The translations under genes were made by a program, and so were the position numbers. From an uncultured Acidobacteriota bacterium (GTDB lineage: Bacteria > Acidobacteriota > Thermoanaerobaculia > Multivoradales > UBA5704), in contig CAVYRF010000002.1 in the NCBI GenBank assembly GCA_963770895.1, forward strand, positions 2,944,001-3,008,000: a DNA stretch of 64,000 bases, written 5' to 3'. The notes beneath the pieces were generated by a model. It made no database searches. It worked only from the letters and a program-made list of their open reading frames with translations, and was not told the DNA's origin. Positions 35,770-43,426 of this stretch are shown here, piece after piece; within the stretch, counting starts at the first letter, position 1; each line of letters opens with the position of its first letter.

Positions 35770-38700
35770 ATGCGACTGTGCCTCGGCGTAGTGGCGGTGG
35801 TCGTTGGTTTGGCGTTTCCGGCGTCAGGGTCGGCGCAGGCTGCCGGGGGTTCGGCCGGCGGCGCCGGGGTGACCATGGCGGTTGGTGGTAGCGGCCAGAC
35901 CGCCGCGGCGCCCCTGGTGGAGTGGCCGGAGGTGGGGCGGACGTTTGCCGAGCCGCTGGTCCCCGTCGGGGCGCCGGAGGCGCTGGAAACCCGCGAGCTG
36001 GCGGCGGCGATCCGCGCCTACCGCGCGGCGGCGGACGTTGAGGCGGTGGAGCCGATCCTCGCGTTCCTGACGCGGCACCCGGATTCGGCCTGGAAGCCGT
36101 CGTTGCTCGCCAACCTGGCGGTGCTCTATCGCCACACCGGCTACCTGGATCGCGCTCTTGCCGCGGCCGAAGATGCCTGGCGGTTGACCGCGACGTCTGG
36201 GGAGCCCGAGGCGATGAAGGTTGCCGACGCGGCGCTGGCGACCCGCATCGAGATCACCTCCGCCCTGGGCCGCACGGAGGAACTGGCGGCGCTGCTCGAC
36301 GCGGTGCGGAGCCGCCCCCTGCGCGGTCACGCCGCGGAGATCGTTTCCGGCGCGCGGTCGAGCCTGTGGCAGATGCGCCACGACCCGGGCAGCTCCTTCC
36401 GCTGCGGCCCCCTGGCCATCGAGCGGGTCGCCGCGGTGCTGCATCCGGGCGCCGCCCCCGATCCGCGGGTGCTGCGCTACCGCTCGACGGGCCAGGGCAC
36501 CTCGCTGGAGGAGATGGCGCAGCTTGCCCAGGCGACCGGCCTGGAGCTGCAGGCGTTCCAACGCCAGGCCGGCTCTCCAATCCCGGTGCCGGCGGTGGTG
36601 CATTGGAAGGCCGGCCACTTCGCGGCGCTCGTCGCGCAGCAGGGGAGCCGCTACCTGGTCAAGGACATGACCTTCGGCGACAACCGCTGGCTGAGCCGCG
36701 CCGCCGTGGAGGAGGAGTCCTCCGGCTATCTGCTTGCCCGGTCTGGAAAGCCGCTGCCGGAGGGGTGGCGTGCGGTGGCGCCCGCGGAGGCTGCGGCGGT
36801 GCGCGGGCGAGGCGCCAGCGCCAACCCCAACCCGGGAGCGACCACGCCGGCCGACCCCAAGAAGCCGGCGCTGTGCGGTGGCAACGGCGTCGGCATGCCG
36901 GTCTACAACTTTCACACCGCGGTGGTGAGCTTGAACGTCACCGACTCTCCGGTCGGCTATCAGCCGCCGCGCGGACCGGCGATGCGGTTCGGCATCACCT
37001 ACAACAGCCGCGAAGACTTTCAGCCGGCCACGTTCACCTACACCAACCTGGGCTCGCGCTGGAACTTCGACTGGCTCTCCTACGTCGAAGACGACGACCC
37101 CAACGGCAACGGCAACACCATCCGCGTCGCCGAGAGGGGCGGCGGCTCGTACATCCTGTCGCAGGTTTCGGCCATCTATTGGTGGGCGTACGGCCCCAAC
37201 GTGAGCGGTTCGCACGACACGGTGACGCGGCTGTTCCAGGCGGGTGCGAACAGCACCGTCGGCTTTGTGCGGCAGTATCCCGACGGTTCGCAGGACACCT
37301 ATCAGCTTTCGGACAACGCCGCCATGATGCGCAAGTACTACCTGACCGCGGTGACGGATGCGGTAGGCAATACGGTCACGCTCAACTACGACGCCGCGAC
37401 CACGCGCCTGCTGTCGATCACCGATCCGCTGGGCCAGACGACGACGCTCACCTATGGGTTGGCGGGAGACATGTACAAAGTCACCGCGGTCACCGACCCG
37501 TTTGGGCGCCAGGCGCTCTTTCAGTATTCCGGCGGCGAGCTGCAGAGCGTCACCGACGCCGCCGGGATGACATCGTCGTTCGCCTACGGTCCGACCGTGC
37601 CGGCGCCGGCAGCGCCCTATTGCCTCAACAGCAGCTACGACACGGTGTACGCCGTGCCGGCGGATTTCATGAACGCGATGACCACTCCCTACGGCACGAC
37701 GAGCTTCGTCATGGGGGAGGCGCCGCCGTGCGTCGGAACCGACCTTGGCAACATCCGCTGGCTGCAGGCGACCGATCCGCTCGGCCACCAGGAGCGGATC
37801 GAGTTCACGCACGAAGCGCAGAACGTTCCAGAGACCACGACCGAGCCGATCCCCGCCGGCTTTGGCAACGAAAACCTGGCGTATCGCAATACCTACTATT
37901 GGAACCCGACGGCGATGGAGCAGTACAGCGCCGCCGATCCCAATCGGTATCTCAACGCCACCTTCACCATCCACTGGCTGCGCGACTTTTCGGAAGGCGG
38001 GACGGCGGCGTCTTCGATCCCGGGTTTTGTTCAGCCGCAGGGGGAGCGCCGCATCTGGATGAACTATCCCAACATGCCCGGCGACAGCGACCAGGGCAGC
38101 CTTTCGGCGCCGACCGTCACGGCGACGGTGCTCGACACCGGCCAGACCCAGGCAACTGCCTCCAGCTACGATGCCTCGGGCAGGCTGCTGACCTATGCCG
38201 ACCCGGCGGGCCGCACCTATAACTACCTGTATGCGGCCAACCAGATCGATCTGATCAAGGTGCTGGCCGGGCAGCTGGATGGCGGCGGCACTGGCCTTAC
38301 GTCTGCCGGCGAACAGCTGGCCGGCTTGACCTACAACTCGGTGCATGAACCGCTCACCTACGTCGACTACGCGGGCCAGCGGTCGACATTCACCTACAAC
38401 AGCTTTGGCGAGATGACCTCGGCGCAGCGGCCGGATGGGGTGACCACCAACTACACCTACGACAGCCGGGGTTTTCTGATCCAAAAAGCGATCGCCGGGA
38501 CCACCTACCAGGAAACCTACACGTACGACTCCGCCAATCGGCTGCTGACCTGGACGTCGACGGACGGCTACACCTTGACGTTCAGCTACGACTCGCTGGA
38601 TCGCCTCACGCAGATCACCTATCCGGACGGCACGATGGACCAGGTGGTGTTCAACAAGTTGGACGTCGTGGCCTATCAGGACCGCATGGGACGGGTCACC

Positions 38701-42800: not shown

Positions 42801-43426
42801 TCACCATCAACCAAGGCACCCCGCCCCGCTTCGGCTTCGCCGGTACCTACTACCACCAACCCTCCGGCCTCAGCCTGACCGAGTACCGCGCCTACGACCC
42901 CAACCTCGGCCGCTGGGAAAGCCGCGACCCGTTGGGTGAAATAGGTGGCGAGTTCAACCTCTACCGCTATACCGGCGGGGATCCGATCAATCTGATCGAT
43001 CCTCTTGGGCTAGCGACGATAGAGGCGACGCCTCCAAACGCCGTTACGTATCTTGCCCCTGACGGTCAGTGTTTTTATGCGCCTCCTGGTGTAGATTGGA
43101 ATGAGGTCCACAAGGCTGGCCATGATCAGGGGCTTCTTGGAGCAGCCGACAACGTCGCACAAAAAGGCAGATATGACGTTCAGCGCAGTGGTGACAACTT
43201 TTATCTCGCCTATGTTCATGCGTCAAATTACGCCGTCGGCGTCTATATGAACGGGGCAGGGATTCCATTATGGGCGACCGACGTGATAGGCAAAACATAC
43301 GGGCTTCTTAAGTCTGACAATACGGCCCATAACGACTGGGTGACCTGGTGGGCAAATGGCTGGAATGCTGCAAACTCTGGACGGCTTCCAGCTAAACCTT
43401 GTAAGTGCCGGCCTGCCAAGCATTGA
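39848..43426 (+). CDS. Secreted Ig-repeat + RHS core + C-terminal toxin protein B
   Basis: Signal peptide, Big_2-like repeats (VTWSV...GLFTAP), YDANGNL strands, three GWAWD/NGNHGF repeats, RAYDPNLGRW, PINLIDPLGL, then a lower-GC C-terminal domain (43013-43426). Confidence 0.92.
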   Translation: MRTERWLEAVRGRLLPLAFAGVVLVTGGLRQVRAQTSVTVSGPTTLYQGEAAIYNASVYPYPTGTVVTWSVYPPAGVTLNEPGTTSINVTAGTTPGVYTLTAIANNVASGYLNITVPGPPVTSVTPLTAVIAAGQAALFSASVINSDSPYFFWSTDDPSGIVAGGGGAGTGPVGQFSHIVGRSGGLFHVYVVNNGDGNYGVQGTATVQVVDVAVAPAAITVLPGTARQFFADVTGSQQSVQWSSTLPGATFSSTGLLQVPANAAAGSYTVTVQTVGNPLATSTAALTVVSTMPVSGVAVSPSRSVIDSGQQEPFTAVVEDPNGEPHPNQAVTWSVAGPGAASIAANGLFTAPAVPGVFTVTATAVANPTQSGTATVTVGEDLEILPSSPSLAPGASQAFTAQVSGVANPAVTWSVEEGSAGGSITTAGLYTAPVGAGVYHVLALSTAAGGGPVQGLATVTVSAGPLIGIAVAPAETAVAAGGLQQFTATVAGAADTGVLWSVSAGSIDATGLFTAPTTDGTVTITAASHADPQVQASATAVVTVPGQGQAFQYDANGNLLSDGTRTYEWDAENRLTAINIGSQRSQFAYDGLGRRALITELNNGAVVSSRHYIWVEDQIVEETDATVDPTGAVTAPGNFDSLNCNQVAGWAWNPAQPNTPVSVSIESGTTSEATVLANNYRSDLKLAGAGNGNHGFTYPLPAQFKTGTAQAATLLLTGTTTSLGTRTVTCTAPSFSGSFASPSCTQLAGWAWDATEPNDPINVDIYDGTTLIVTVLANTFRQDLENAGIGNGVHGFFLPTPAALKTGTAHTITLKAGGTPTVIGAPQTLTCSSANFAGFFDYADCTQLAGWAWDANQPNAALNVDLYDNGALLATIPAATFRQDLQTAGKGNGDHGFTYTSPALYSGTTHSLSVTYSGTTIPLGGTPKTITCPTEPILTRFFPGGMQSSGTNYYFTYDRLGSVREVTDPNGKVVSRYDYDPYGRLTINQGTPPRFGFAGTYYHQPSGLSLTEYRAYDPNLGRWESRDPLGEIGGEFNLYRYTGGDPINLIDPLGLATIEATPPNAVTYLAPDGQCFYAPPGVDWNEVHKAGHDQGLLGAADNVAQKGRYDVQRSGDNFYLAYVHASNYAVGVYMNGAGIPLWATDVIGKTYGLLKSDNTAHNDWVTWWANGWNAANSGRLPAKPCKCRPAKH

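Follow-up and report, generated by a model that had tools for sequence, protein, structure and literature searches.

A putative Sec-exported RHS polymorphic toxin divided between two genes in an uncultured Acidobacteriota bacterium

Two adjacent genes, here called A and B, lie on the forward strand of the window, the whole 64,000-nucleotide stretch of DNA from an uncultured Acidobacteriota bacterium that was analysed. We consider, with a probability of about 0.7, that they encode a Sec-exported two-chain RHS polymorphic toxin made up of a constant scaffold chain (A) and an exchangeable adhesin-toxin chain (B), permanently split and translationally coupled. The two open reading frames (ORFs) overlap by 11 nt (ATGAGAACTGA), as an initial annotation of this DNA had reported, and RHS_repeat matches in both chains agree with its statement that A carries most of the YD repeats and that B resumes them, which it does from residue 550. 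The traits of RHS polymorphic toxins are present, including RHS/YD repeats, a core with a DPxGL motif, a hypervariable C-terminus and orphan cassettes. The usual form, in which shell and core share one polypeptide, was not encountered at any visible junction of this gene pair.

The split between A and B

The host genome (8.16 Mb in 3 contigs, 95% complete) contains seven A-B loci, and the junction is kept in six of them. Relatives were found in metagenome-assembled genomes (MAGs) of Thermoanaerobaculia and other Acidobacteriota; A-type N-terminal domains occur in 14 of the 401 Acidobacteriota genomes sampled. The initial annotation had proposed a survey of homologous gene pairs for a conserved split point. 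Such a point exists: the two genes are divided at the same place in 13/13 readable junctions from 7 genomes, the junctions outside the host genome being those of L013 and L014 (both in G011), L016, L020, L108, L109 and L111. At every junction A stops 35–58 codons past its NQL strand, and B has a Met or Val start codon followed by a charged, then hydrophobic, N-terminus.

The junction sequences themselves vary. Overlaps of 11 nt occur in five loci and overlaps of 4 nt in another five, and gaps separate the genes in three (8 nt in L108, 10 nt in L111 and about 54 nt in L109). Within the host genome, L096 has a 4-nt ATGA overlap that places B in the other frame, and the remaining five junctions have the 11-nt form; the 4-nt overlaps of L013, L014, L016 and L020 read GTGA. 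A GGAGG-like motif is located 6–10 nt before the B start, within the last codons of A, at most overlap junctions (7/10 counted). Exceptions are the window copy and L097, which read ACGGGGG, and L096 and L020, where the motif is absent. Since frame relation and junction sequence both vary from locus to locus, an assembly error common to all of them is excluded, and so is a conserved signal for recoding.

Purifying selection acts on both genes. The ratio of nonsynonymous to synonymous substitution rates (dN/dS) of the window copy against four paralogues is 0.12–0.31 for A and 0.24–0.43 for residues 1–1055 of B. The RHS strands of B have the lowest values of any B segment (0.12–0.28) in comparisons with three of the four paralogues (L098, L100 and L099). 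The identities of A and of B to the window copy give the same ranking of paralogues.

That the split is a frameshift introduced by sequencing or assembly, or marks a pseudogene broken not long ago, is an explanation that deserves almost no weight. It would be in keeping with an assembly of three contigs and with a possible indel in the A gene of L097, and Logan contigs from runs X1–X4 that cover both sides of window positions 39300–40400 are neutral either way, since none bridges 39783–39904. No RNA run covering this stretch was listed, which is equally neutral. Against it, the split recurs in six paralogues (57–96% identity) and six other genomes with differing junction sequences, and dN/dS is well below 1. 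The proposal of the initial annotation that the split evolved, rather than arising from a frameshift error, is thus well founded, given the 13/13 split junctions, their varied frames and the low dN/dS. A 2798-aa open frame in L013 (G011:C3:789500-801500) was considered as a fused A-B protein and rejected; it is an alternative frame in GC-rich DNA, and the real A is in another frame.

Programmed frameshifting or readthrough that joins the two products, with the apparent signal peptide of B serving as an internal linker, would account for genes that overlap or abut. We regard this as very improbable. The frame relation is +1 in five junctions and −1 in five, L109 has a same-frame gap with three stops, and no shared slippery site was seen. 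In addition, every junction retains a start codon, most also have a Shine-Dalgarno-like motif, and single-chain relatives with large inserts at the corresponding position have no hydrophobic segment there.

Those single-chain relatives place the split within a defined loop. In eight loci (L022, L031, L102, L104, L105, L106, L107 and L114), an A-like part with 34–39% identity over about 1250 residues runs in frame into the equivalents of B residues 549–626 and 937–1055. The 1647-aa ORF of L031 reads ...YNNVNQVLSFNDESFTYDANGNVIDDGVRTYEWDAENRL, which is the last strand of A followed directly by the first RHS strand of B. The initial annotation had held that N(Q/R)L and YDANGNL are consecutive in single chains, and A and B are indeed collinear with these proteins exactly at the boundary of NQL and YDANGN. 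In L022 and L102, one small domain is inserted exactly at the split point. In four long single chains (P0132, P0138, P0141 and P0142), 400–1100 residues without a match separate the A-like part from the B-like strands; in P0132, P0138 and P0142 the insert consists of 800–1100 residues of LysM-like repeats, and no internal signal-like hydrophobic segment was found in the inserts of these three, which were the ones checked. A search for longer proteins with A yielded five RHS proteins, all distant, and nothing closely related in fused form, and a similar search with B residues 540–1060 returned no fusion of A with an immunoglobulin (Ig)-like array; both results are weak evidence.

C39-like/RHS single chains of 2300–2800 aa, with LysM-like arrays in the split-point loop (PF03412 plus PF01476), make up a broader family seen in cyanobacteria-like and other MAGs, and their architecture too seems not to have been described. 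The single-chain family with signal peptide, TPR, C39-like and RHS parts appears to be undescribed.

A maximum-likelihood tree was built from 22 A-type sequences (12 split, 8 single-chain and 2 from contigs that end before the junction), leaving out L097, which has a frame break in A, and L101, in which the junction is deleted. The split sequences and those of unknown state form one clade (Shimodaira-Hasegawa-like approximate likelihood ratio test support of 96), and one state change suffices. Thus, the split arose once and was kept. The clade spans families f1 and f47, with long internal branches between them, and the tree points to a split that is old and conserved in a lineage of soil Acidobacteria.

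Neither chain holds a complete shell. A contains about 85% of an RHS shell, without the core (RHS_repeat PF05593, E 7.7e-52, with matches to YD_repeat TIGR01643 as well), and B by itself contributes only about 200 RHS residues. A residues 875–1047 align to residues 642–814 of RhsA (7q97), and B residues 953–1055 to RhsA 1185–1290; the spacing between the aligned blocks is 371 residues in RhsA vs about 386 across the remainder of A plus the B strands. On these alignments, a full RHS shell is to be expected only from A and B together.

It is nevertheless conceivable that A and B are uncoupled, with B acting as a self-contained secreted Ig-adhesin that carries a core and toxin, and A as an independent secreted peptidase/RHS protein with an empty or open shell. 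Two observations would suit such an arrangement: an export signal is present on each chain, and databases list long B-type proteins as proteins in their own right. We consider it unlikely. The RHS part of B, at about 200 residues, is too short to form a shell, and its strands are the most constrained part of the protein against three of four paralogues. Furthermore, A and B are adjacent and coupled at all of the junctions, rank the paralogues alike and are both collinear with the single chains.

Domain organization and genomic context

The positions of all features are listed in Table 1. Residues of A are numbered as in P0001, from a GTG at 35734, so that M13 corresponds to the ATG at 35770. 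This ATG is the likely start of A, as judged from the AAGGGAG located 8 nt upstream. Pfam matches in A are confined to RHS_repeat, Peptidase_C39 and a sub-threshold DUF4595. The Peptidase_C39 match (PF03412) has an E-value of 5.7e-07 and a score of 29.9 bits vs a cut-off of 22.

The N-terminal part of A (residues 13–399) was modelled with AlphaFold from a 22-sequence alignment. The mean predicted local distance difference test (pLDDT) score is 82.5, with values >90 at model residues 50–350 and <50 in the signal-peptide region. The model predicts a domain of helical repeats and, after it, a papain-like domain, with a disordered linker to the RHS part. The top PDB matches of this model in Foldseek are C39 and C39-like domains of HlyB, ComA, LahT and PCAT1 (E 8e-4 to 1e-2; target-normalised template modelling scores of 0.57–0.65). 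A PDB sequence search with the A N-terminus gave no match, and the likeness to C39 was seen only after folding. C224, H295 and D311 are invariant in 11/11 sequences, and the equivalents C212, H283 and D299 in 22/22. In the predicted structure, the N-terminal domain of A has the C39 fold with a Cys/His/Asp triad.

A double-glycine peptidase of the C39 type might be expected to be fused to an exporter and to have a GG-leader substrate. No ATP-binding cassette exporter domains were identified in A by Pfam, and no exporter gene is shared by the flanks of the paralogous A-B loci. All A-type proteins have an invariant Cys and a conserved G-M-P (residues 387–389) after the disordered linker and before the RHS part (A residues 381–389, window 36874–36900). 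Speculatively, the G-M-P could be a processing site for the C39-like domain, which might trim the linker. At its other end, A continues for 43 residues beyond TYDGANQLITLDSG, comprising a helix and a Pro-rich stretch, and dN/dS of this tail is 0.2–1.4.

B consists of an export-signal-like N-terminus, an Ig-like array, RHS strands, a triple repeat, a core and a toxin domain. The RHS strands open with AFQYDANGNLLSDGTRTYEWDAENRL at residue 550 (PF05593, E 2e-09). They are followed by three tandem modules with the pattern C-x-Q-x-A-G-W-A-W ... N-G-x-H-G-F ... T-C and exactly one Cys pair each (644/730, 744/831 and 845/932). This triple repeat has no Pfam and no PDB sequence match. It occupies a second RHS loop of B, between the RHS strands and the core, and is found only in the f1 branch; in P0023 and P0024 a PF16158 insert takes its place, and f47 members are without any insert there. 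The core matches TIGR03696 over residues 979–1055 (E 7.9e-21), with DPLGL at residue 1051, and aligns to the final ~110 residues of Rhs, TcC and teneurin cores of known structure. Residues D1017, D1051 and G1054 are invariant in 15/15 sequences of the alignment of B proteins (A1), in which sequences diverge after DPxGL. The toxin domain of the window copy has no Pfam or PDB match, nor has the candidate immunity ORF at its end a Pfam or PDB sequence match.

Table 1. Features of the A-B locus and its downstream flank, in window coordinates.
Feature	Position	Strand	Basis or remark
Gene A, scaffold chain	35770..39858	+	1362 aa from ATG 35770; ORF open from 35734
A signal peptide (putative), MRLCLGVVAVVVGLAFPASGSAQA	35770..35841	+	Read from sequence; similar N-termini in paralogues and orthologues
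A TPR-like helical domain	35980..36474	+	AlphaFold helices 71-235, pLDDT >90; weak TPR Pfam matches
A Peptidase_C39-like domain with C224, H295, D311	36403..36741	+	Pfam PF03412, Foldseek
A RHS/YD shell part, N-terminal plug region to last strand ...TYDGANQLITLDSG	36895..39726	+	
A tail: LSLQAQAAIQQLRARR, Pro-rich stretch, GGGHEN, stop	39727..39858	+	Contains B start codon
Gene B, adhesin-core-toxin chain	39848..43426	+	1192 aa
B signal peptide (predicted cleavage between VRA and QTS)	39848..39949	+	N-terminus MRTERWLEAVRGRLLPLAFAGVVLVTGGLRQVRA, then QTS
B array of about 5-6 Ig-like domains	39950..41494	+	Big_2, I-set and Ig_3 matches
B RHS strands continuing the A shell (AFQYDANGN...EWDAENRL...VEETDAT)	41495..41725	+	Residues 550-626
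B triple repeat, three tandem ~100-aa modules	41726..42655	+	310 residues (B 627-936)
B RHS-associated core (aspartyl autoprotease region), ending DPLGL	42656..43012	+	TIGR03696
B polymorphic C-terminal toxin domain	43013..43426	+	137 aa; divergence after DPxGL in alignment A1
Candidate immunity ORF, low GC, overlaps B end	43405..44124	+	239 aa; position only
Orphan RHS core fragment and alternative toxin	45084..45974	+	83% identity to B 884-1056; one in-frame TAG

The guanine-plus-cytosine (GC) content is ~70% across the window, with a lower-GC stretch at 42–48 kb. Here GC falls to 58–60% (window 42000–48000), over the toxin end of B and the small ORFs downstream, and these small ORFs recur in the downstream flanks of other paralogous loci. 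A further orphan cassette was identified downstream of L098 (G000:C2:1555181-1556869), a 783-aa open frame with 85% identity to B residues 538–1095 that begins exactly at the B RHS strands and is without signal peptide and Ig array. The low-GC stretch and the orphan cassettes are the usual picture of C-terminal displacement. These downstream orphan core/toxin cassettes, the triple repeat of B, and the TPR and Peptidase_C39-like domain of A are three features absent from the initial annotation.

Directly upstream of A, on the same strand, are groES and groEL (window 33347–35377). At the other six A-B loci no gene upstream is shared, and so this neighbourhood is probably no more than the insertion site of the window copy. 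No accessory or secretion gene upstream is common to the seven A-B loci of the genome.

Export, assembly and delivery

The N-terminus of B was assessed by a crude check of hydropathy and charge only. The test set (n=15) comprised the B protein of L096 and 14 of the 15 B proteins in alignment A1; the remaining one, P0018, has no N-terminus. In 15/15 there are 3–7 Lys or Arg residues followed by an 11-residue window with a mean hydropathy of 2.0–3.3; as a control, 5.5% of 200 internal 80-residue segments reach a hydropathy of at least 2.3. Many of the N-termini have a small-x-small motif and Gln after the hydrophobic core (VRA/Q, IQA/Q, LAA/Q and ATA/Q). The export-signal-like N-terminus that the initial annotation attributed to B is therefore conserved in every member of the test set. 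Single-chain relatives carry an N-terminal signal only, and thus a detached C-terminal half needs a signal of its own to arrive in the same compartment. Other features that point to export are the single Cys pair in each insert module and the Ig and Big_2 domains of B. We infer that both chains are probably exported via Sec.

The hydrophobic segment of B could instead be an uncleaved signal anchor, in which case B and the cage would remain attached to the inner membrane on its periplasmic side instead of being released. Several of the n-regions are long (20–33 residues), as an anchor might have, and hydropathy was the sole property tested. The hydrophobic cores are short, at about 11–15 residues, and in many members small-x-small sites and Gln occur just past them. 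On balance this seems improbable, somewhat more so than two uncoupled proteins, and cleaved Sec signals on both chains are preferred.

Given a Sec-exported two-chain toxin, the following history and mechanism can be proposed. The ancestor would have been a single chain with signal peptide, TPR, C39-like peptidase, RHS shell, core and toxin. Relatives display binding modules in the exterior loop between ...NQL and ...YDANGN, some 190 residues short of the end of the core. Members of the split clade have the Ig-like array in this loop and, ahead of it, a stop codon, a fresh start and a putative second signal peptide. Both chains would be exported unfolded via Sec, and A would fold to an open shell. 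The RHS strands of B would then extend the sheet of A, and the core of B would close the cage round the C-terminal toxin of B itself, which would be cut off at DPLGL. The Ig array and, in f1-type proteins, the triple disulfide-type insert would stand out from the surface of the cage and serve for binding; an adhesin or binding role for the array and the displayed modules is probable. A would be constant, with the variable parts (array, insert and toxin) all in B, and the 3′ end of B would be diversified by recombination with the downstream orphan cassettes.

Assembly of A and B in trans into one cage after export, with this route of release, appears to be the most likely mechanism. We give about even odds to its more specific form, in which the chains would cross the inner membrane separately, the open shell of A would be completed by the B strands, and B would thread its toxin inside. 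The same even odds apply to a scaffold-plus-cartridge arrangement, where one A might pair with several B (there are seven pairs in the genome), and to use of the split loop as a general site for target-binding modules.

Several points weigh against a Sec-exported two-chain toxin. Single chains hold inserts of ~1000 aa in the split-point loop; the split is thus not structurally required. The evidence for signal peptides comes from the hydropathy and charge check described above. Longer B-type database proteins have a signal-like N-terminus in four of seven cases, and the other three (P0134, P0135 and P0137) lack one as called, which may reflect mis-called starts or may be real. A cage of ~270 kDa would also have to cross the outer membrane. 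Finally, two of the seven copies in the host genome look damaged. In L097 (G000:C2:652492-661280) there is a frame break near A residues 191–195 that could be an assembly indel. In L101 (G000:C2:5442444-5450269) the last ~140 residues of A and the first ~120 of B are deleted and the junction is gone; B of this locus is without a signal peptide because of that deletion.

With regard to delivery, the initial annotation had noted that the window contains no VgrG, PAAR or TcA gene. For VgrG (PF05954) and PAAR (PF05488) this now extends to the 95%-complete genome, as it does for TssC (PF05943), in searches where the controls detected these families. The genome likewise has no match to TcA (VRP1, PF03538), a result that is uninformative because the control missed this family in every reference genome. 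Two secretins are encoded in the host genome.

Comparison with known RHS cages

To our knowledge, RHS/YD cages have so far been known in two forms, as single chains (T6SS Rhs effectors, WapA and teneurins) and as the cytoplasmic two-chain Tc BC complex. The A-B pair would represent a second, independent two-chain solution, with the split at another place, an export signal on each half and retention across deep divergence. If so, encapsulation of a toxin needs neither one continuous chain nor the cytoplasm. Relatives fill one exterior loop with Ig, beta-sandwich or LysM-like arrays, and this loop may provide a handle on how Sec-exported RHS and teneurin-like toxins without an injection machine find their targets. 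Engineering of loadable protein cages might also draw on this natural split site.

The initial annotation had compared the pair with Tc toxins. The likeness holds insofar as TcB-TcC, the nearest known RHS cage of two chains, is also a two-polypeptide cage in which the second chain has the core autoprotease and a variable toxin, and the B core aligns to TccC2 and TccC3. It is an analogy only, as the site of division and the route of export are different, and so are the accessory domains. TcC contributes about 660 shell residues (the core of TccC2 is at residues 557–664 of 664) vs about 200 in B. The accessory domains of TcB (SpvB, TcB-mid/N and propeller) have no Pfam match in A, and both chains of the A-B pair have signal-like N-termini. 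Tc chains are not known to have signal peptides; they assemble in the cytoplasm, dock on TcA and exit by lysis.

Type VI secretion system (T6SS) Rhs effectors, such as RhsA (7q97), Tse15 and Rhs1, have a homologous shell and core. They differ in being the product of a single gene, whose N-terminus is of the PAAR or VgrG-binding kind, and in lacking a signal peptide. After autoproteolysis, several chains stay together in one cage in these effectors. WapA is grouped with the Sec-type RHS toxins, which are single polypeptides.

Among toxins of the Sec and type II secretion system class, the survey of Zhang et al. (2012, PMC3482391), in the sections at hand, describes RHS proteins with a signal peptide, RHS repeats, a polymorphic C-terminal toxin and immunity cassettes as single polypeptides. 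The same sections list C39-like domains as toxin domains and not as N-terminal modules (PMC3482391). A literature search, the scope of which did not extend to supplements, found no paper describing a two-gene Sec-type RHS system.

Bacterial teneurin-like proteins have Sec-type signal peptides, a YD shell round a polymorphic toxin and added adhesion domains, and the portion of the source considered here states their delivery route as unknown (Raoelijaona et al., 2026, PMC13018210). The best PDB match of the B core is to proteins of this group (9pt5/9ifo). In contrast to A and B, they are single-chain, and no C39-like domain features in that portion of the source. The TTR, FN-plug, NHL and TIP domains of teneurin-like proteins have no Pfam match in A or B.

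Also among the closest systems is the single-chain C39/RHS family of Acidobacteriota, Fibrobacterota and cyanobacteria-like MAGs. It shares with the A-B pair the TPR domain and C39-like triad, the RHS shell and core, and the use of the loop for inserts, but each member is encoded by one ORF with one signal peptide. In the split toxin, the same loop instead holds the stop of A, the start of B with its putative signal peptide, and then the Ig array.

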